This document shows positions 1,974 through 21,873 of a stretch of 40,307 bases of DNA, in pieces. Each line of letters starts with the position of its first letter. Within the stretch, counting starts at the first letter, position 1. This DNA comes from Candidatus Sulfopaludibacter sp. SbA3 (lineage in GTDB: Bacteria > Acidobacteriota > Vicinamibacteria > Vicinamibacterales > UBA2999), in contig CAMBHC010000001.1 of NCBI GenBank assembly GCA_945866285.1, positions 1 to 40,307 of the forward strand, given 5' to 3'. Under the pieces are notes generated by a model, which worked only from the letters and a program-made list of their open reading frames with translations, did not search any database and was not told where the DNA came from. Made by a program: the position numbers and the translations under genes.

Positions 1974-3707
1974 TTAGGCGAGCCGCTCGACCACGCTCGT
2001 GTCGATGCCTTCGCGCTTGAGGCCGGCCAGCAGGCGATCGCGATCCGGCGACTTGCGGAACGCTTCGCGGACATCAACAACCCCTGAGTGCACGAGCCCA
2101 ACCAGCGCGTCGGCCAGCGGCACCATGCCATGCTTGCGGCCGCCTTCGAGTGCGGCTTGCAGCTGTCCCGACGAGCCGTCGCTGATCACGCGGGTGACCG
2201 CCGCGGTGGCCAGCAGCACTTCGCGCGCCGCCACCCGGCCGCCGCCCGACTTCTTCAAGAGCACCTGCGCGACCGCGCCGCGGAAGGTTTCCGCCATCGC
2301 CGCGCGCACGCCCGCGCGCGCATCGGCCGGTGCCAGTTCCACGAAGCGCTCCACGGCCTCGATAGTCGAGGGCGCGGTGATCGAGACGAACACCAGGCCT
2401 TCTGATGCGGCCTGCAGTAGCAGCGGCACCATGTGCGCCGAGGCCAGGTCGTCCACGGCCAGCACATCCGGGTCTTCACGCAGGGCCGCGCGTGCGGCGC
2501 TCAGTGCGTCGTCCACACCGCCGCGAATTTCGCGCTGGCTGACAATCGCGGTGCGGTTGTCGTGCACGAGGCGGATCTGCCGTTCGAGCGTGACCACGTA
2601 CTCGGCCCGCTGACGATTGACCAGGTCGACGAGGGCCGAGACCAGGGTGGACTTGCCGTTGCCCGGCAAGGCGGCCACCAGCACCAGGCCCTGAGGCTCG
2701 GTGGCCAGGGCCTGCACTTCACGCGACAATCCCAACTGTTCGGCGGTCGCCGCGCGCGTCGCGATCATATGGAACACGACGCCGGGGCCGCGGTGATCCG
2801 TGAACGTGATGCAGCGCACGCGGCCGAGATCCGCAAACTCGGTGAGCCACTCCGTGGACTCGCCGCGACCAACGGCTTCCTGCTCGGCTTCGGGCACGAT
2901 TTCCATCACCGCGGACTCGACGTCGGCGCGGGAGAGTGGCGGTTCGCCGTCCAGCGGACGAATGTCGCCTTCGACCCGAATCGAGGGCCGGCAATCAGAG
3001 GTCACAAACAGCGCGGACGCGGCGCGGGCCGCGGCCAGGCGCAGCAGGCGCTCAACGCCGGAGCCGCGCATCGCGGCAGCCCGTGGCGGCACTTCAATGC
3101 GAACCGTCCGGGTCATCTGGAGAACGGGGGCACGCTCGGCGACGGCCGGCGCCTCGTCAATCACCACCGGCTCATCGATCGCGAGCGGTTCCTCGACGAG
3201 GGCCGGCGCATCAGCGACGATGGGCAGCTCTTCGACAACCGGAGCCGGCTCCTCGCTGACCAGCACCGGTTCCGCCATCACCTCGAGCGGCGCTTCACTG
3301 ACCTGTGCCGGCTGGTCGATGGCCGCAACGGGCACCGGCACGTCCACCAGTGTCGGCGGCACGTCGAGGTTCACCGGCGGCGCGGCCACCGCCGCCACCG
3401 ACTTGCGGCGACGGCGGATCTCAATCCAGATGTCGTCGCCCCCGCGAGCCGCCACCACCGTAAAGGCGTCGTGGTCCCGCGGCGGCAGGCGATGTTCGAC
3501 GGCGCCGAACTCCTCAAGCGAATCCTGGGCGGCCGCGGGCAGCAGCTGCTGCAGCATGCCGGTCATCGCGCCGAGGTTCAGGATCTGCGACGACAGCTCC
3601 TGCGTGCCCGCGCCCACGACAACGTACGGCCGCTCACCGACGTGCATCACCAGAGCGTCGCCATCGGCGCGGACCATCGCGGTCAGAAGAGATTCGACTA
3701 GTGCCAT
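1974..3707 (-). CDS. PilT/PilU-family secretion ATPase homologue with two N-terminal PilT-N domains, a Pro/Val/Ala/Glu-rich linker and degenerate catalytic motifs
   Basis: 577 aa. The C-terminal half aligns with PilT: LVLVAALPGNGKST (Walker A), REDPDVLAVDDL (Walker B region), LLKKSGGGRVAAREVL. Two copies of the PilT N-domain are present, at residues about 1-100 and about 215-320. Confidence 0.8.
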   Translation of the reverse strand: MALVESLLTAMVRADGDALVMHVGERPYVVVGAGTQELSSQILNLGAMTGMLQQLLPAAAQDSLEEFGAVEHRLPPRDHDAFTVVAARGGDDIWIEIRRRRKSVAAVAAPPVNLDVPPTLVDVPVPVAAIDQPAQVSEAPLEVMAEPVLVSEEPAPVVEELPIVADAPALVEEPLAIDEPVVIDEAPAVAERAPVLQMTRTVRIEVPPRAAAMRGSGVERLLRLAAARAASALFVTSDCRPSIRVEGDIRPLDGEPPLSRADVESAVMEIVPEAEQEAVGRGESTEWLTEFADLGRVRCITFTDHRGPGVVFHMIATRAATAEQLGLSREVQALATEPQGLVLVAALPGNGKSTLVSALVDLVNRQRAEYVVTLERQIRLVHDNRTAIVSQREIRGGVDDALSAARAALREDPDVLAVDDLASAHMVPLLLQAASEGLVFVSITAPSTIEAVERFVELAPADARAGVRAAMAETFRGAVAQVLLKKSGGGRVAAREVLLATAAVTRVISDGSSGQLQAALEGGRKHGMVPLADALVGLVHSGVVDVREAFRKSPDRDRLLAGLKREGIDTSVVERLA

Positions 3708-3850
3708 TCTTCAAAGTGCCAAGGGTGCCAGGGTGCCACAGGTGCCAGAGTACCAAGTGTGCCAGAGTGCGGTGCCGTGGCCCGCGTGCCAAGCTGTGTA
3801 TCGGCGAGCATTGGCCTGCACCTTGGCACGGTTGGCACCGTGGCACCTTC
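3701..3850. repeat. Array of GTGCCA (7 perfect, + strand) and inverted TGGCAC (3 perfect) hexamers with 8-9 bp periodicity
   Basis: GTGCCA at 3701, 3716, 3725, 3733, 3742, 3759 and 3786. Variants GTACCA at 3750 and GTGCCG at 3772. TGGCAC at 3824, 3833 and 3841. A 9-bp inverted repeat pairs 3785-3793 with 3822-3830. Confidence 0.85.
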
Positions 3851-3880
3851 TTAGTTCATCGGCTGCGGCGAGGGCAGACG

Positions 3881-4603
3881 TTAGCGAGACCGTTCGGCCA
3901 GGTGCAGGGTCATCAGGCCGAACAGCAGCGGCACCACGCGAACGTTGGTGAATCCACGCGCCGCGAGCAGCGCCGCGACACCGGTCGCGCCGGGGTAGCG
4001 GCGAATCGATGCCGGGATGTAGCGATACGTGTCGGGGTCGCGATGCAAGAGCCAACCGAGAGTGGCGCCAACCACCGTCAGGTACGACAGGTAGACGGCG
4101 CGGACCAGAGCGGGTTGCGGTCGATTGAAGTCCAGCGAGAGCAGGCGGCCGCCCGGCCGCAACACCCGGGCGATCTCGTCGATGGCGAGGGTGAGGTCCG
4201 GCACATTGCGAAGCCCATATCCCGTTGTCACGAGATCAAACGACGCGGACCGCAGCGGCAGGTCCGTCATGTCACCGGTGATGAAGCCGACGGGCGCTTG
4301 CCCGCCGTAGCCTTGGCGACGGTGGGCGAGTTGCAGCATGCGATGGGTGAGGTCCAGGCCGACCACCCGCGCGCCCTTGGCAGCCGCGGCGAAAGCGATG
4401 TCGCCGGTGCCGCAGGCCAGATCCAATGCGCGCTCCCCGGGCCGCACCTGCGCCATCTTGATGAGCGTCCGCTTCCAACGCGCATCCTGTCCGTAGGACA
4501 GCACCGCGGTGATGAGATCGTAGCGATCGGCAATGGTGGTGAACAGCGCGCGGTTGTAGGCGCGCTTGCGTTCGGGTGAATCGAATGCCGACCGCAGGGA
4601 CAT
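3881..4603 (-). CDS. ubiE: Demethylmenaquinone / ubiquinone biosynthesis C-methyltransferase (UbiE/MenG family)
   Basis: YDLITAVLSYGQDARWKR, LDLACGTGD (SAM motif I), FDLVTTGYGLRNVPD and LRPGGRLLSLDF. The start is taken at ATG 4603-4601 (MSLRSAFD..), which overlaps the feoB stop as ATGA; the longer ORF to 4696 would run into feoB. Confidence 0.85.
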   Translation of the reverse strand: MSLRSAFDSPERKRAYNRALFTTIADRYDLITAVLSYGQDARWKRTLIKMAQVRPGERALDLACGTGDIAFAAAAKGARVVGLDLTHRMLQLAHRRQGYGGQAPVGFITGDMTDLPLRSASFDLVTTGYGLRNVPDLTLAIDEIARVLRPGGRLLSLDFNRPQPALVRAVYLSYLTVVGATLGWLLHRDPDTYRYIPASIRRYPGATGVAALLAARGFTNVRVVPLLFGLMTLHLAERSR

Positions 4604-6006
4604 CAGAACCCGAAGACGGCGCGCGCTACCGCCGCCGTGAACAGCGTCACGATGAAGCCGAGGGCCAGCGGCATCAGCGCGCCGATCGCGGTCCACTTCG
4701 CGCTCAAGGTCTCTTTGTAGATGGTGATGATGGTCGTCGCGCAGGGATTGTGGAGCAGCGAAAACAGCATCAGGTTCACCGCCGTCAGCATGGTCCAGCC
4801 ATGCTGGTCCACGAGCAGGGCGCGCAGCCCATCCATGGAGTCCATCTCGGTCATCATGCCCTGGGACATGTACACCATCAGCATGGTCGGGACCACGATT
4901 TCGTTGGCCGGAATGGCGATGATGTACGCGAGCAGGATCACGCCGTCGAGACCCATCGCCCAGCCCAGCGGCTGGAGGAAATCAGCCGTCCGCGTCGCCA
5001 GGCTGACGCCGCCGGGCGAGATGTTGGCCAGCAGCCAGATCACCGCACCGGCCGGGGCCGCCGTGACGATCGCGCGCCACAACACGAACAGCGTGCGGTC
5101 AATCAGCGAGGTGTAGAGAATGCGGGCCATCGCCGGCCGCCGGTACGGCGGCAGCTCCAGGGTGAAGGCTGAGGCCTCACCGCGCAGCACCGTGCGCGAC
5201 AGCGCCCACGACACCACCAGCGTGAATGCCACGCCCACCAGCACGATGCCCACCACCGCCCCGGCGGCGACCAGCGACGCCACGGCTGGCGGGAACGCCG
5301 CCGCCACGAAGATCGTGGCCAGCATGATCAAGGTCGGAAAGCGGCCGTTGCAGGGCACGAAATTGTTGGTGAGAATCGCCACCAGCCGCTCGCGCGGCGA
5401 GTCGATCACGCGGGTCGCAATCACGCCGGCCGCGTTGCAGCCGAAGCCCATCGCCATCGACAGCGCCTGCTTGCCATGCGCCCCCGCGCGCTTGAACAGG
5501 TAGTCGAGATTGAACGCCACCCGCGGCAGGTAGCCGAGGTCCTCGAGAATGGTGAACAGCGGGAAGAAAATTGCCATCGGCGGCAGCATCACGCTGATCA
5601 CCCACGCCAGGCCGCGATAGACGCCGTGCCACACGAAGCCGGTGACCCACCACGGCACCCCGAGTTGCGTGAACCACGCCGCCGCCAGGTCTTCGAACCA
5701 GAAGAATCCGGTCGCGAGCATTTGCGACGGGACATTCGCGCCGACGATGGTCAGCCAGAAGATCACCGCCAGGATGCCCAGCATCAGCGGCAACCCGAAC
5801 AGTCGCGAGGTGACCACGCGATCGATTCGCTGATCGAGTTCAAGCGGACCCGAACCGGAATCCTGCACGGCCCGCCGCGTAATGCGCTCGACTTCCCCGT
5901 ACAGCGACGTCACGACCTCTTCGCGGAAGCCGGCATCGAGCGAACGGCGCAGCGCCGCCGCCTCGCGGACAATGTCGCCGGGGGTCACGGTCAGCGACTC
6001 GCTCAT
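4603..6006 (-). CDS. feoB: Ferrous iron transporter FeoB, membrane (permease) portion as a separate ORF
   Basis: 467-aa polytopic protein with FeoB gate/nucleoside-recognition-like segments (FGLPLMLGILAVIFWLT.., GFGCNAAGV, NFVPCNGRF). Its ATG overlaps the stop of the G-domain ORF (ATGA at 6003-6006). Confidence 0.85.
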   Translation of the reverse strand: MSESLTVTPGDIVREAAALRRSLDAGFREEVVTSLYGEVERITRRAVQDSGSGPLELDQRIDRVVTSRLFGLPLMLGILAVIFWLTIVGANVPSQMLATGFFWFEDLAAAWFTQLGVPWWVTGFVWHGVYRGLAWVISVMLPPMAIFFPLFTILEDLGYLPRVAFNLDYLFKRAGAHGKQALSMAMGFGCNAAGVIATRVIDSPRERLVAILTNNFVPCNGRFPTLIMLATIFVAAAFPPAVASLVAAGAVVGIVLVGVAFTLVVSWALSRTVLRGEASAFTLELPPYRRPAMARILYTSLIDRTLFVLWRAIVTAAPAGAVIWLLANISPGGVSLATRTADFLQPLGWAMGLDGVILLAYIIAIPANEIVVPTMLMVYMSQGMMTEMDSMDGLRALLVDQHGWTMLTAVNLMLFSLLHNPCATTIITIYKETLSAKWTAIGALMPLALGFIVTLFTAAVARAVFGF

Positions 6007-6821
6007 TGCGCGCCTTGCAGCGCGATTTTCCTGCTGAAGCGCGCGTCCGGCTTCTGCTGGCGCACCACCAGTTCGGCGAGTCGTCCGCTGGCCAGCGCTT
6101 CCTCAACCGGCACGTCGCCGTCGAGCAGGCGAATGGCAATCCAGCGTGCGTTCGGTACGCCAGGTGCGGCCGCTTCGATCATCGGCACCAGCTTGCTGAC
6201 CGCATGTTCGAACGCCGCCGTTCCCTTCGAGCGCAGCGGCTGGGTCACGGCTTCGCCCGAGGCCACCGCGGCCACTTCGCCGAGCAAGGCCATCATGTTC
6301 TCGCCAGTGCGCGCCACCACTGGAATGGCCGGCACGCCCAGATCGCGCGCCAGGCTGCGCGTGTCCACCGCGATGCCGCGGCGCTTCGCTTCATCCATGA
6401 GATTCACGGCAATGACGACGCGATCGGTGATCTCGAGCACCTGCAGGACCAGGTAGAGGTTGCGTTCGAGGGCGCTGGCATCCACCACCACCACGGTGCA
6501 GTCGGGGCGCCCGAACAACAGGAAGTTTCTCGCCACTTCCTCATCGTCGGAGGCCGAGAGCAGCGAGTAGGTGCCAGGCAGGTCGACGAGCTTGTAGCGG
6601 ACGCCGCCGAACTGGAAGCCGCCCTCGGCCCGCGTCACGGTCTTGCCGGGCCAGTTGCCGGTGTGCTGGCGAAGGCCGGTCAGGGAATTGAACAGCGTCG
6701 ACTTGCCGGTGTTCGGGTTGCCGGCCAGCGCGACCACATGATCGAACGCGCCGACCGCGGCCCCGAGCTGGGCCATCTCGGCGTGCACCGGGCAGGTTTC
6801 GCAATTGTGTTCAACGCTCAT
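6003..6821 (-). CDS. feoB: FeoB N-terminal GTPase (G-domain plus helical domain) as a separate ORF
   Basis: ALAGNPNTGKSTLFNSLTG (G1), GNWPGKTV (G2), VDLPGTYSL (G3) and AVNLMD (G4). Ends 4 nt into the permease ORF. Confidence 0.85.
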   Translation of the reverse strand: MSVEHNCETCPVHAEMAQLGAAVGAFDHVVALAGNPNTGKSTLFNSLTGLRQHTGNWPGKTVTRAEGGFQFGGVRYKLVDLPGTYSLLSASDDEEVARNFLLFGRPDCTVVVVDASALERNLYLVLQVLEITDRVVIAVNLMDEAKRRGIAVDTRSLARDLGVPAIPVVARTGENMMALLGEVAAVASGEAVTQPLRSKGTAAFEHAVSKLVPMIEAAAPGVPNARWIAIRLLDGDVPVEEALASGRLAELVVRQQKPDARFSRKIALQGAQ

Positions 6822-15682: not shown

Positions 15683-16117
15683 GTGACTGAGGGCGCGTGG
15701 GTCCCCGTAGCGGGCGTGCTGGCCGCCGGTATCATGGCAGCTGTCCTGTTCTTCTGGTGGAAGGGCCAGCCGTTCGCCGACGGCGACGTGTTCCGCGCCA
15801 GCCGCCTGTCGAGCGGCAACCGGTTCTTCCCGACCCAGGTCCTGGTTACACCGGCCTCGGTGGTCCACTACACTCCGGAAGTGGTCGGCCGAAAAGAACA
15901 TTCGATCCACATGGCACATGTGGCGTCGGTCAGCATTGATACCAACCTGTTCTTCTCCAACGTCCTGATTGAGACGACCGGCGGCACAACCCCGGTGGCG
16001 TGCCATGGGCACCGCAAGGCCGATGCGATCCGCATGAAGCAACTGATCGAGCAGTACCAGACGCAGTACTACCGCACCGCCGGTACGCCATCCGCTGCCG
16101 AGGTGTCGCGTGGATGA
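15683..16117 (+). CDS. Single-pass membrane protein with bacterial PH-like domain (tentative)
   Basis: TM segment VPVAGVLAAGIMAAVLFFWW followed by ..VLVTPASVVHYTPE..IHMAHVASVSID..SNVLIETTGG.. The start is uncertain (GTG 15683 chosen). The stop overlaps the next gene by 8 nt. Confidence 0.45.
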   Translation: MTEGAWVPVAGVLAAGIMAAVLFFWWKGQPFADGDVFRASRLSSGNRFFPTQVLVTPASVVHYTPEVVGRKEHSIHMAHVASVSIDTNLFFSNVLIETTGGTTPVACHGHRKADAIRMKQLIEQYQTQYYRTAGTPSAAEVSRG

Positions 16118-17462
16118 CCTGACCTTCACGGCACGCCGGCACAGCGCCGGCAGCGGCAGCCATCGTGGCGAGCCCCCCGACCTCGAGACGCGCTTCAAGA
16201 CCCTGGTGCAATCGCCGCTGCGCGCCGGAATCCTGCGTTTCCTCTCGGCCCGCCCAGAGGAGTCGTTCGATAACGAAGCGATCATGCAGACCTTCGGGCG
16301 CATGCGCCAGGACGTCGACAACTGCATCCGCGAACTGGTCGAGTTCGGCGTCGTCCGCAAGAACCCGGGTGACACCGCGACCTACGGCGCCATGCGGCCC
16401 GACGCGGAACCCATCGCAAAGCTGCTGGACGTGTTTCTCGAAGGCCGCGCCTACCTCGGCATCGAAGAAGCCTCGCCGTCGGTGCAGCGCTTCCGCGAAA
16501 TGATCGGCCGCGACGAGAAGATGCTGGCGATCTTCGAGTGGATCCGCACCGCCGCCAAGTCCGACATCTCGGTCCTGATCCTGGGCCCGACCGGCTCGGG
16601 CAAGGAAGTGGTCGCGCGCATGATTCACGAACTGTCGCGGCGCGGACCCGAGAACTTCCAGGCCGTGAACTGCGCGGCCCTGCCCGACAGCTTGTTCGAG
16701 TCGGAAATCTTCGGCTACGAAAAAGGCGCCTTTACCGGCGCGCATGACCGCAAGCCTGGCCGCCTTGAGCTGGCCAACGGCGGTACCTTGTTCTTTGACG
16801 AGGTCGGCGACATGTCGTTGATGGCACAAGCCAAGTTGCTGCGTGTGCTTGAGGAACGCCGGTTCGAGCGCCTGGGTGGCAATAAGTCGATTCACGTCGA
16901 CTTCCGCCTGATCTCGGCGACCAATCGCCCACTCGACATGTTCGTCCGCGAAAGCCGGTTCCGCGAGGACCTCTACTACCGCATCAACGCCTTTGCGATC
17001 CGCCTGCCGTCGCTGCGCGAACGCGCCGTCGACATTCCGGTGCTGGCCAATCGCTTCCTGGCGCGCTACTGTGCGGCCAACGGCCTGCCGCTTGACGCCA
17101 AGCAGTTCTCGTCGGAAGCCCAGGACCTGATGGCGTCGTACCATTGGCCCGGCAACATCCGCGAACTCGAAAGCACGGTCTCGCGAGCGGCCCTGTCCGC
17201 GCCGGGGCGGTCGATTCGCGCGGCCGACATCGAGTTCCTTCACGGCCATGCCATGGCGCGACCGGACGAGACGTCCAATCGCCTGCCCTCACTCCGCGAC
17301 TCCGAACGCGCGCACATCATTCGCGTGCTGGAGGCGACGGCGTGGAACAAGCTCGAAGCCGCCAAGGTTCTCGACATCAGCCGAGGGACGCTCTACCGCA
17401 AGATTGAGGAATACGGCCTGGAACCTGCCGCCGGGTCAGGACGGCGACGCGGCCGGAGCTAA
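16110..17462 (+). CDS. Sigma-54-dependent transcriptional activator (bEBP): N-terminal winged-helix-like domain, AAA+ core and Fis-type HTH, with no receiver domain
   Basis: GPTGSGKEVVA (Walker A), GYEKGAFTGA (GAFTGA loop), LFFDEVG (Walker B), RLISATN, and C-terminal AAKVLDISRGTLYRKI. Confidence 0.9.
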   Translation: MDDLTFTARRHSAGSGSHRGEPPDLETRFKTLVQSPLRAGILRFLSARPEESFDNEAIMQTFGRMRQDVDNCIRELVEFGVVRKNPGDTATYGAMRPDAEPIAKLLDVFLEGRAYLGIEEASPSVQRFREMIGRDEKMLAIFEWIRTAAKSDISVLILGPTGSGKEVVARMIHELSRRGPENFQAVNCAALPDSLFESEIFGYEKGAFTGAHDRKPGRLELANGGTLFFDEVGDMSLMAQAKLLRVLEERRFERLGGNKSIHVDFRLISATNRPLDMFVRESRFREDLYYRINAFAIRLPSLRERAVDIPVLANRFLARYCAANGLPLDAKQFSSEAQDLMASYHWPGNIRELESTVSRAALSAPGRSIRAADIEFLHGHAMARPDETSNRLPSLRDSERAHIIRVLEATAWNKLEAAKVLDISRGTLYRKIEEYGLEPAAGSGRRRGRS

Positions 17463-20344: not shown

Positions 20345-21118
20345 CTACATCCCGATGATGTGGTACCCGGCATCGACCATGATCACTTCGCCGGTAATGC
20401 CACGGCCAGCATGGCTTAACAGGAATGCGGCGGTGTCGCCGACTTCTGACGTTTCGATCGCCCGGCGCAGGGGCGCCTTCTCGCGCACCACACCCAGGAT
20501 CGACGAGAAGCCACCAATGCCGGCCGCCGCCAGCGTCTTGACCGGACCCGCGGAAATGGCGTTGACGCGAATGTTTTCAGGACCCAGGTCCGCGGCCAGA
20601 TAGCGAACCGACGATTCGAGCGCGGCCTTCGCCACGCCCATCACGTTGTAGTTCGGGAAGACCCGGTCGCTGCCGAGGAACGTCAGCGTCACCACGCTGC
20701 CGCCGCCGCGCTTGGCCATCAGGGGTTGTGCGCCACGAGTCAGCGCGATCAGCGAGTACGCGCTGACGTCCAGCGCCTGCTTGAAACCCTCTCGCGTCGT
20801 CTTCAGGAAGCCGCCGGTGATTTCTTCCCGCGCCGCGAAGGCGGCGCCGTGCACGAGGAAATCCAGTCCGCCGTGGTCCTGTTCGATCCTCTCGAATACG
20901 GCGGCGATCTGTTCATCGCTGGTGACGTCGCAGGGCAACACCGTCGGCTTGGGATCAAGCGTGGCGGCCAATTCGCCGACATGCTCTTCGAAGCGACCCT
21001 GGTATGTGAGGATGAGTTTCGCGCCCGCGTTGGCGGTGGCCTGCGCGATGGCCCAGGCGAGCGAACGATGGTTCGCCACGCCGACGATCAATCCAACCTT
21101 GTCGGTAAAGTCTGCCAT
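20345..21118 (-). CDS. fabI: Enoyl-[acyl-carrier-protein] reductase (NADH)
   Basis: VGVANHRSLAWAIAQ, YNVMGVAKAALE and ISAGPVKTLAA. The start ATG overlaps the upstream stop as ATGA. Confidence 0.92.
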   Translation of the reverse strand: MADFTDKVGLIVGVANHRSLAWAIAQATANAGAKLILTYQGRFEEHVGELAATLDPKPTVLPCDVTSDEQIAAVFERIEQDHGGLDFLVHGAAFAAREEITGGFLKTTREGFKQALDVSAYSLIALTRGAQPLMAKRGGGSVVTLTFLGSDRVFPNYNVMGVAKAALESSVRYLAADLGPENIRVNAISAGPVKTLAAAGIGGFSSILGVVREKAPLRRAIETSEVGDTAAFLLSHAGRGITGEVIMVDAGYHIIGM

Positions 21119-21873
21119 CAGCGATTCTTTTTCCCACCACGGCGGCGGCGGCCGCCGCCCTGCCCCTGGCCTTGGCCCTGGTTCTGGCCTTGGTTCTGGC
21201 CTTGGTTCTGGTTCTGACCCTGGTTCTGACCTTGTTGTCCCGGGCCGCTACCGTGTTCGCGGAAACGCATCGGGCCCAGGTTGTCCTGGCTGCCGCCACC
21301 GCCCGCCCGCCGGCGGCCGCGGAACTTGCCGCCGCCTCCGGCACCACCGGCGCCACCGGCATGGCGCTGCGCGCCACCGTTGTGACGGCCTCGGTTGTTC
21401 AGGGATTGGATGGTGAATTCGGGAAGGGCGCGGGGCGCGGGTGTCGCACCTTCAAGCTTGGGAAAAGTGGCGCGTATGAGGGACCGCCGGAATCCACCCT
21501 CGCGCAATTGGTCATCCTCGACCTCGGGCGCCGCGGGCACCGGCGCGGAGTCAATGATCGGCGGAGCGGCCGTCAGCGGCACGTTCGGTGTCTCATCCAC
21601 AACAGGTAATGGGGGTGGCGGCGGTGATTGGGGACGCGGGGTCGCGCCCTGCAGGCCATCGAGCACTTGCGCAAACAGCGCGGGGGGTTGGGTCTTGCGG
21701 CGTGGCGCCGGGACCTTGGCCTCCTTGTATTCGTGCTCGGCCTCGCAACTGCCGCAGCGCGTGCGTTGGATGGTTTCGTCGACCATGGCCACGATGGCAT
21801 GATCCGTAATGCGGCGCTCGCGCGGACAATAGTCGTCCGTCACGTCGCCGGGCCGATACCGGCGGTCTTGCAT
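21118..21873 (-). CDS. Hypothetical protein: N-terminal zinc-ribbon-like module plus a long disordered Pro-rich, RGG and (GQN)n tail
   Basis: DDYCPRERRITDH..RCGSCEAEH, then low complexity ending GQQGQNQGQNQNQGQNQGQNQGQGQGQGGGRRRRGGKKNR. Confidence 0.6.
   Translation of the reverse strand: MQDRRYRPGDVTDDYCPRERRITDHAIVAMVDETIQRTRCGSCEAEHEYKEAKVPAPRRKTQPPALFAQVLDGLQGATPRPQSPPPPPLPVVDETPNVPLTAAPPIIDSAPVPAAPEVEDDQLREGGFRRSLIRATFPKLEGATPAPRALPEFTIQSLNNRGRHNGGAQRHAGGAGGAGGGGKFRGRRRAGGGGSQDNLGPMRFREHGSGPGQQGQNQGQNQNQGQNQGQNQGQGQGQGGGRRRRGGKKNR
21163..21237. repeat. Imperfect 6/12-nt tandem repeats (GGTTCTGGCCTT / GGTTCTGACCCT units) encoding the (GQN)n tail
   Basis: Read directly from the + strand within the 3' end of the 21118-21873 gene. 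Confidence 0.7.

Follow-up and report, generated by a model that had tools for sequence, protein, structure and literature searches.

The 40,307-nucleotide stretch of DNA analysed here (the window) carries a dense cluster of the hexamer GTGCCA and its complement TGGCAC between a ubiE/menG-type methyltransferase gene and a gene for a PilT-like ATPase. We consider it very probable that this cluster belongs to a dispersed, lineage-specific family of short tandem repeats, members of which occupy intergenic DNA in Vicinamibacterales-type Acidobacteriota and in some Gemmatimonadales. That the cluster is a local copy of this family which also has a structural or post-transcriptional effect in cis is, taken as a whole, the interpretation that we favour with moderate confidence. 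The functional part of this interpretation, in which an array resized by slippage lies in the leader of the pilT-like gene and would act structurally or post-transcriptionally through a 5′ stem-loop, is put forward only tentatively. The arrays occur at many unrelated loci, grow and shrink by whole units, have a polarity and are paired in one fixed arrangement, and at the present locus an array has been kept through deep divergence. We infer that the element is neither a sigma-54 promoter nor an operator or switch specific to the pilT-like gene.

The hexamer cluster

An exact motif search located GTGCCA on the plus strand at positions 3701, 3716, 3725, 3733, 3742, 3759 and 3786, and TGGCAC on the plus strand (GTGCCA on the minus strand) at 3824, 3833 and 3841. 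These are exactly the ten sites reported in an earlier description made from the sequence alone (the sequence-only reading), which had also listed the one-off variants GTACCA (3750) and GTGCCG (3772), both of which are present, and had correctly placed the cluster between the ubiE-like stop codon (3881–3883) and the PilT-like ATG (3707–3705). The total number of hexamers is not unusual, as the window contains 37 copies and shuffled sequences give an expectation of 29.5 ± 5.6. The anomaly lies in the clustering, with ten of the 37 falling within 146 bp where 0.098 would be expected (Poisson P for ten or more, 2 × 10−17). When the whole window was scanned, no second stretch with three or more units at 7–10 nt spacing was found, which bears out the earlier statement that the hexamer clusters nowhere else. 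The intergenic region (IGR) is identical to that of the window in 17 independent metagenome assemblies, and the array is therefore not an assembly artefact.

Although all ten sites are real, the copy at 3701 is formed by codons 1–3 of the PilT-like gene (ATG GCA C) and reads ATGGCG in L001, a relative at 93% identity, and we therefore do not regard it as part of the array. (Labels of this form denote the compared sequences from other genomes.) As read from the sequence, the array proper is 3716–3848. The repeat unit is 8–9 nt in length with the consensus YYTGGCACC, and the sense strand of the PilT-like gene has first three GGTGCCA units and then about eight TGGCACC units. The latter make up a start-proximal direct array (3716–3793, minus strand), identified by motif search and Tandem Repeats Finder as about eight (Y)YTGGCAC(C) units on the sense strand, of which six are perfect (the plus-strand GTGCCA sites from 3716 to 3786) and two are the variants at 3750 and 3772. 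Their spacing is regular near the start codon (9-8-9-8-9 nt) and irregular at the distal, inner end. The three GGTGCCA units form a distal inverted array (3824–3848, minus strand), ahead of which stands the A-rich run AAGAA.

A GGTGCA box (3817–3822, minus strand), picked out by reading the orthologous leaders, marks the inner end of this distal array, and between the box and the start-proximal array lies a non-repeat centre, CCAAUGCUCGCCGAUACACAGC on the sense strand (3794–3816, minus strand), which is kept between the window and L009 despite a difference of 0.40 at fourfold-degenerate sites. Arrays with periods of 9 and 17 (3715–3770) and of 8 (3818–3847) were called by Tandem Repeats Finder. 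An inverted repeat that the sequence-only reading had placed around 3785–3793 and 3822–3830 was recovered as a 12 nt repeat with 92% match (3785–3796 and 3819–3830). Orthologue comparison further delimits an A/U-rich stretch, CUUUGAAGA, that is poor in Shine–Dalgarno (SD) character and is followed by the ATG (3705–3715, minus strand).

Dispersal of the repeat

One genome per GTDB species was scanned for three successive units (TGGCAC-N2–3-TGGCAC-N2–3-TGGCAC); the pattern is seeded on TGGCAC, so that the counts are lower bounds. At least 118 loci match it. Among the matches listed, 25 of the 118 are from metagenome-assembled genomes (MAGs) of Acidobacteriota/Vicinamibacterales and one contig with a clear inverted pair is from Gemmatimonadales, a lineage spread that is itself a lower bound and has no denominator. 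Six of the MAGs among these matches have arrays on two to four different contigs, the counts being at least four in JBAROV01, at least three each in CAVYZT01 and CAVVOD01 (in the latter, two stretches are on one contig) and at least two each in JBPYFA01 and JANMWI01. The acidobacterial arrays listed have 4–37 units with mixed 8/9 nt spacing, are imperfect and are almost all intergenic; the matches listed from other phyla are mostly exact 9 nt in-frame coding repeats or isolated microsatellites.

The genes that flank the arrays encode Lgt, Fpg, AccD, IlvD, GlgB, GlgC, UDG, short-chain dehydrogenases/reductases, a radical-SAM enzyme and MacB-type permeases, among others. Pfam assignments for 20 of these genes revealed neither a common functional theme nor motility genes, and the idea that they form a regulon was set aside on this account. 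The sequence-only reading had named the presence of the same array at many unrelated loci as the finding that would speak against a role specific to this gene. Arrays are indeed found beside functionally unrelated genes, and by that standard a gene-specific role is refuted. In the literature searched, no paper has a string of two units of the repeat from bacteria, and none describes such repeats for Vicinamibacteria.

The behaviour of the arrays elsewhere is illustrated by L121, where a ten-unit array (5651–5735) adjoins the GTG start codon of fpg (mutM), which has no SD sequence. The fpg orthologues in L227–L233, at 77–83% identity, have no array and retain the neighbouring CACTATSCTGA element; in one of these orthologues a single GGCAC corresponds to the ten units of L121. 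It follows that arrays come and go at other loci and that, in at least one case, a seed seems to have been expanded in place. The longest array found (L087, 1673–1907) has 30–37 units of GGCACCYT and lies between two co-directional minus-strand genes, for a metallo-β-lactamase-fold protein and a TerB/DUF697 protein, so that their mRNA would read GGUGCC. A scan around this array found no flanking promoter-like or terminator-like site, and a reading of it as a 'sponge' small RNA is unsupported for that reason.

We note that the IGRs of related genomes and loci hold other repeat families, namely GTGCTAC (three copies, beside GGCAC arrays), GTCGACT (six copies), CAATGWT and a 39 nt unit (three copies), at sites which include L091 (about 6470–6490), L137 (about 3380–3400), the upstream regions of L050 and L232, and L052. 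It seems that these soil genomes carry short tandem repeats as a general rule. A scan of viral contigs was uninformative, the matches being almost all 9 + 9 nt coding repeats.

Unit, polarity and inverted pairs

The rules of the family were derived in part from leaders that had been found through the encoded protein and hence are free of motif bias. In these the unit logo is C-Y-Y-(T/A)-G-GCAC-C-Y-T, and GCAC has a density of 48 per kb compared with 4.7 per kb in coding sequence. The arrays are polar: in the GGCAC direction more than 20 of 38 open with a degenerate HGCAC(C) unit and end sharply, and those read as GTGCC correspondingly finish in GGTGCR. About one third of the loci are inverted pairs. 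In all ten independent pairs a GTGCC array is followed by a GGCAC array, never the reverse (P = 0.002).

With respect to genes, arrays are found in both orientations, including after stop codons and between convergent genes, the latter being the position of the inverted pairs in L117, L174 and L202. Arrays adjacent to a stop codon read GTGCC on the sense strand of that gene in 12 of 14 cases (P = 0.013), and of 18 arrays next to a start codon, 13 have GGCAC on the sense strand, which is not significant (P = 0.10). An A-rich run is located ahead of many GTGCC arrays, and a mildly T-rich run follows the GGCAC arrays (T 0.27, against a background of 0.17).

In the mechanism that we propose, arrays would arise in place by replication slippage, starting from chance or palindromic GGTGC..GCACC seeds. 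They would extend at the 3′ end of the GGCAC strand, and growth at this end would give pairs that always point outward. Outward growth from a palindromic seed would thus account for both the polarity and the fixed arrangement of the pairs. The window fits this scheme, because the start-proximal end of its direct array is regular, the inner end is irregular and a GGTGCA box lies at the inner end of the inverted arm. The opposite arrangement to that of every acidobacterial pair was seen once, in an IMG/VR contig of 27% G+C (L290, 323–423) in which three copies of TGGCAC are followed about 55 nt later by three of GTGCCA; this is probably an unrelated protein-binding site.

The array at orthologous loci

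The gene order feoB–ubiE–IGR–pilT-like gene–142-residue open reading frame (ORF) is conserved among relatives, and GGCAC arrays are present at these orthologous loci in the same orientation down to about 73% protein identity. Their copy number varies from 2 to about 14, and they stop 5–12 nt short of an ATG or GTG start codon that has no SD sequence. In a neighbour-joining tree built on the PilT-like ATPase domain and read together with leader content, every member of the clade that includes the window has an array of 2–13 units, in leaders of 119–205 nt. The sister clade has leaders of 51–128 nt, and five of its members, including L027, have two or three units at the same place. The distal GGTGCCA arm is confined to the subclade of the window, L223, L001, L226 and L009, where it has three or four units.

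A GYGTGCA box occurs in the leaders of array-less orthologues at the position equivalent to that of the GGTGCA box, which is a possible seed of the inverted arm. The array-less leaders of the sister clade (L016, L020, L023, L028, L011 and L026) share a box, GUGUGCA-AUC-GCGCGCA, that forms a small hairpin with G·U pairs and is followed by GCGCA(G/A) and then by a U-rich run directly before the start codon. This box may represent an older element of the leader that gave rise to the GGTGCA box of the window.

At closer range, 20 assemblies with at least 99% identical protein were fetched. One lacks a single 9 nt unit and one has a point change; unit number thus differs in one of the 20, a comparison in which consensus assemblies hide variation within populations. 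A phase-variable contingency locus built on a simple sequence repeat would be expected to change its unit number often among strains this close. Relatives at 98 and 93% identity show whole-unit differences of 8, 9 and 17 nt. Indels of these lengths shift the reading frame and the array is therefore not coding; a small ORF across it (3846–3634, 70 residues) is excluded on the same evidence. Between the window and L009, fourfold sites differ by 0.40 (identity 0.60) and the IGR identity is 0.75. When the window is compared with L004 and L008, where the fourfold difference is 0.47–0.48, only the promoter-like motif described below and the GGCAC units are still recognisable in the IGR. From these comparisons the array is long-lived at the pilT-like locus and is resized by the gain and loss of units. 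The sequence-only reading had allowed that it might prove not to be conserved in close relatives, and this is not the case.

The same array could in principle be a neutral microsatellite, a tolerated by-product of slippage with no effect on expression of the pilT-like or ubiE gene, which we think unlikely. Several observations are in keeping with it: the indels are of whole units, arrays at other loci are sporadic, as in the fpg control, both orientations occur, and the IGRs hold other short repeat families (GTGCTAC, GTCGACT and CAATGWT, with CCAAGYCC at 1453–1477 of the window). However, the array persists in the same orientation, abutting the start codon, across fourfold differences of 0.40–0.48, and the IGR identity between the window and L009 exceeds the fourfold identity. 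Furthermore, with one of 20 near-identical strains differing in unit number it is not a fast-drifting microsatellite, and the leader structure of −70 kcal/mol predicted below would be unlikely to be without effect.

As a separate observation, the PilT-like coding sequence of L011 contains 9 nt GTGCC/GGCACC repeats (654–747 and 1157–1197) in a Pro/Ala-rich variable linker, where they encode VPK/VPE and APE/APQ; the same motif expands in frame within this gene.

Putative promoter and leader of the PilT-like gene

A scan of positions 3300–4300 revealed no sigma-70-like promoter and no intrinsic terminator in the IGR. A two-block motif, TAA[CT]-N15–17-[GAC]CCGA, was however found upstream of 42 of 66 orthologues (46–100% identity), with a spacer of N16 in 38, and has just 13 other matches in the approximately 740 kb scanned. 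In the window it reads TAAC-N16-GCCGATGA and consists of a −35-like element, TAACG (3879–3883, minus strand), which overlaps the ubiE stop codon TAA (3883–3881), and a −10-like element of sigma-28/FliA type, GCCGATGA (3856–3863, minus strand), recognised from its conservation in orthologues. The consensus for sigma-28 (FliA/SigD/WhiG) is TAAA-N15-GCCGATAA, and the two-block motif resembles a promoter of this type.

From the position of the motif in the window, the transcription start site is predicted to lie near 3848, which would give a leader of about 145 nt holding the whole element. The array thus probably lies in the transcribed leader of the pilT-like gene. The motif is also present in clades that have a different upstream gene, where it is located 16–36 nt from a start codon preceded by GGAG. 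Seen in this way, the arrays resemble sequence inserted between the start codon and a promoter of older origin. The conserved sigma-28-like pair, which can be written TAA[CT]G-N15-GCCGA[T/C/A] for the window and the upstream regions of L001–L085, hints that this orphan ATPase belongs to a sigma-28-type regulon, possibly one for motility. The titles and abstracts obtained in a literature search contained nothing on motility in Vicinamibacteria. No sigma-28-like motif was noticed when the flanks of other arrays were read, a reading that did not include a motif search.

Predicted folding and its possible consequences

The sense-strand leader of the window is predicted to fold into a single long imperfect hairpin (3732–3847, minus strand) with a minimum free energy of −70.1 kcal/mol and z-scores of −2.8 and −3.4. 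In this structure the GGUGCC arm pairs with internal GGCACC units, leaving outside the hairpin the last two units, the A/U-rich stretch and the start codon, with an unpaired probability of 0.60 over positions −15 to +3. In L001, L226 and L009 all four GGUGCC units are predicted to pair with start-proximal units, so that the hairpin takes up nearly the whole leader (z = −4.0 to −6.2) and closes immediately ahead of the start region. Stable folds are also predicted for inverted pairs from eight unrelated loci (z = −4.7 to −13.8). A scan with Rfam 15 at gathering scores gave no match anywhere in the window, and on this evidence the element is not a known RNA family.

In the interpretation that we favour, transcription would begin at about 3848 from the conserved sigma-28-like promoter that overlaps the ubiE stop, and the whole element would make up a 5′ leader of about 145 nt. 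Pairing of its three GGUGCCA units with internal UGGCACC units would give a long hairpin that starts a few nucleotides from the 5′ end, and the start region, which is A/U-rich and has no SD sequence, would stay single-stranded. Such a 5′ stem-loop may stabilise or insulate the pilT-like mRNA and may block or process read-through from feoB–ubiE, and the number of units would tune this effect.

A number of points weigh against this interpretation. The leaders of direct-only arrays (L004, L006, L008 and L027) fold no better than shuffled sequences (z of −0.3 or above), and the hairpin is therefore a derived feature of one subclade and not the conserved core. The antisense strand of the region in the window folds as well as the sense strand or slightly better, and folding thus gives no argument for a role at the RNA level. 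Elsewhere arrays lie in either orientation to the flanking genes, an example being L087 with its 30–37 units reading GGUGCC. The promoter, of candidate sigma-28 type, the start site and the status of the IGR as a leader are deduced from conservation alone, and the conservation of the GGCAC core across loci and genomes could equally well reflect a sequence-specific binding factor or sequence-specific slippage. Finally, the effect on expression could be nil.

If feoB and ubiE were co-transcribed with the pilT-like gene, or read through into it, the element could instead be a repeat of the repetitive extragenic palindromic (REP) kind within or at the end of an operon. Its hairpin, 35 nt past the ubiE stop codon, would then serve as a 3′ stabiliser, processing site or terminator of the upstream message. 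The bias of stop-adjacent arrays towards GTGCC on the sense strand, the pairs between convergent genes, the stable folds of the pairs, the A-rich run before many GTGCC arrays and the mildly T-rich run after GGCAC arrays are all in line with this possibility. No canonical intrinsic terminator (a stem-loop with a U-tract) was found in the IGR or around the L087 array, however; moreover, a conserved promoter-like motif stands upstream of the hairpin and the direct-only relatives form no hairpin at all. We regard this alternative as distinctly unlikely.

Another alternative, to which we give a somewhat better but still low probability, is that the array serves as a platform with multiple sites for a protein that binds nucleic acid sequence-specifically, in which case the dispersed arrays would constitute one regulon or chromatin feature. 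At the DNA level this could be a ribbon–helix–helix (RHH) or nucleoid-type protein that polymerises on 8–9 bp units, by analogy with MetJ and its metboxes or omega and its heptads; a candidate at the RNA level would be a Csr-, Csp- or S1-like factor on single-stranded UGGCACC units beside the start codon. The GGCAC core and high GCAC density of the protein-found leaders are consistent with such a platform, as are the placement of the last unit 5–12 nt from an SD-less start codon in the pilT-like orthologues, the lack of structure and hence accessibility of direct-only arrays, and the GGCAC sense of 13 of the 18 start-proximal arrays. A protein that binds directionally also imposes rules of the type seen in the fixed convergent arrangement of the pairs, and the TAACTGA repeats of Beggiatoaceae have been given the same interpretation (PMC4679880).

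Against a binding platform, the products of the genes adjoining the array (a ubiE-like methyltransferase, a PilT-like ATPase and a 142-residue protein without a family match) offer no candidate binding protein, and the array-flanking genes in general have no common function. Arrays are also located behind stop codons and between genes that converge, and the one with 30–37 copies has the opposite orientation. The start-proximal orientation bias is not significant, and the fpg array is absent from orthologues at 77–83% identity.

The sigma-54 reading

Sigma-54 promoters have the form TGGCAC-N5-TTGCW, with GG at −24 and GC at −12 exactly 10 nt apart. The array might on this basis be viewed as a cluster of −24 boxes that acts as a promoter, or as a decoy or roadblock for the holoenzyme, possibly served by the sigma-54 activator encoded at 16110–17462. 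The hexamer does match the −24 consensus, lies on the sense strand upstream of a gene as it would in a promoter, and shares the window with such an activator. However, a consensus search showed that GC is absent from the obligatory −12 position in every unit of the array, as the sequence-only reading had itself observed. The only matches in the array with up to two mismatches, at 3749–3764 (minus strand) and 3841–3856 (plus strand), carry AC or GT there, and a spacing of 8–9 nt never yields the GG-N10-GC geometry. In the window as a whole, sigma-54-like matches are below chance (10, with 19.2 expected). The same arrays are, furthermore, dispersed, inverted, located after stop codons and placed beside unrelated genes. 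We therefore rejected the sigma-54 promoter, and consider any sigma-54 element at this site extremely improbable. Among the roles that had been offered in the sequence-only reading, the structured leader and the lineage-specific REP-like repeat are supported, whereas the sigma-54 framing falls with the missing −12 GC and the low number of matches.

Nothing links the 16110–17462 activator to the array site. The activator combines an AAA+ sigma-54 interaction domain with a single HTH_8 domain at the C terminus, not the two DNA-binding domains that had been ascribed to it, since the second Pfam match covers the same residues (394–435). In its first 130 residues no Pfam match and no receiver domain were detected.

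Comparison with known systems

In its anatomy the family is closest to the short tandemly repeated repetitive (STRR) heptamers of cyanobacteria and to the TAACTGA repeats, and the closest functional analogy of its inverted pairs is with REP sequences and bacterial interspersed mosaic elements (BIMEs). The TAACTGA direct repeats are found in Beggiatoaceae, Cyanobacteria and Bacteroidetes, with 169 direct sets and one indirect set (MacGregor, 2015; PMC4679880). As a class the STRR/TAACTGA repeats are dispersed and intergenic, often abut SD-less start codons and have no known function (PMC4679880). The GGCACC arrays share with them a unit of 7–9 nt, head-to-tail arrays of two to dozens of copies at many intergenic loci, what may be a restricted set of lineages, frequent placement within a few nucleotides of an SD-less start codon and downstream genes without a common function. 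They differ in their G+C-rich unit (YYTGGCACC), in their hosts (Acidobacteriota and Gemmatimonadales), in the polarity of the arrays and in that about one third of the loci are inverted pairs in one fixed arrangement with long hairpins. Their abundance per genome also appears to be lower, with one array in the 40 kb window.

The inverted pairs resemble REP/BIME elements in being dispersed and intergenic and in forming stable hairpins. REP sequences of enterobacteria and pseudomonads are often located after stop codons or between convergent genes, and their stem-loops can stabilise the upstream mRNA; the unit is a 20–40 nt imperfect palindrome and is spread by RAYT transposases. The GGCACC unit, in contrast, is 8–9 nt in length and is asymmetric, hairpins form only where two opposed tandem arrays meet, many arrays are direct-only and at least one, that at fpg, looks expanded in place from a single seed. 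By its unit, the element is therefore not a REP sequence.

RHH proteins such as MetJ (8 bp metboxes), omega (7 bp heptads) and ParG (8 bp boxes) have operators of contiguous 7–9 bp units, direct and inverted and variable in number, at several sites per genome. Unlike these operators, the array in the window lies downstream of the sole conserved promoter-like motif without overlapping it, no RHH gene is nearby, the neighbouring ORFs have no RHH or helix–turn–helix family match, and arrays of the family reach 30–37 units and also follow stop codons. An RHH-type operator was accordingly rejected on grounds of position and neighbourhood. The likeness to a sigma-54 promoter is confined to the −24 hexamer and its promoter-like orientation to the gene, as there is no −12 GC at the obligatory spacing and the units are repeated at 8–9 nt, dispersed and in both orientations.

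A more far-reaching possibility is that GGCACC arrays mark an undescribed genome-wide system of Vicinamibacterales-type Acidobacteriota, with either a dedicated DNA- or RNA-binding factor specific for tandem UGGCACC/TGGCACC units or a dedicated enzyme that extends arrays at the 3′ end of the GGCAC strand. Dedicated directional extension would explain the polarity and the invariant outward pairs, and the binding-factor version would amount to a global post-transcriptional or chromatin-level regulon in which long arrays, such as that of L087, could act as sinks. We believe this to be improbable; if true, it would be a second, independent phenomenon of the STRR/TAACTGA type in a different phylum.

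Few soil bacteria are as abundant as the Vicinamibacterales or as little studied, and the non-coding DNA of this order is almost undescribed. The present family is recognisable by clear rules, these being its unit, its polarity and the single fixed arrangement of its inverted pairs. It will recur in genome scans of this order, where a locus-by-locus reading would mistake it for sigma-54 promoters or gene-specific operators. For the PilT-like ATPase, which is a conserved orphan, the comparison also yields a putative model of promoter and leader. In our view the element is of moderate interest as a family and ordinary as a feature of the pilT-like gene alone.

Genomic context

The PilT-like ATPase gene (1974–3707, minus strand) encodes 577 residues with a T2SSE domain, and the protein scores 230 bits against TIGR01420 (pilT_fam), under the cut-off of 319 bits. 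Public calls start this protein at Met11 (567 residues), ten codons short of the start at 3707, and for this reason an exact look-up of the 577-residue sequence found no record. Among the orthologues, substitutions in codons 1–10 are almost all at third positions, and the ATG or GTG at 3707 is therefore the real start. The upstream neighbour is the ubiE/menG-type methyltransferase gene (3881–4603, minus strand; 5′ limit approximate), the product of which has 235–244 residues in public calls, and feoB, the ubiE/menG-type gene and the PilT-like gene are all on the minus strand. Named homologues point to Acidobacteriota, order Vicinamibacterales. The other genes of the window are of the housekeeping type and include feoAB, DtxR-type regulators, queC, arginine biosynthesis genes and a GGDEF/HD protein. 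No pilus or flagellar genes are present among these, no transposase was found among the ORFs scanned in the window, and the 142-residue ORF next to the PilT-like gene had no family match.

Two further repeats were noted in the window. Three copies of CCAAGYCC with an 8 nt period (1453–1477) lie between the stop codon of a CoA-transferase gene (1451) and the start of the 142-residue ORF (1500). Tandem repeats of 6, 18 and 30 nt of the GCCCTG type (21157–21234) are located at the 5′ end of a stop-to-stop ORF for an enoyl-ACP reductase-like protein (20345–21247, minus strand); they are upstream of the Pfam domain and represent either a Gln/Gly/Asn-rich N-terminal extension or a further non-coding repeat.

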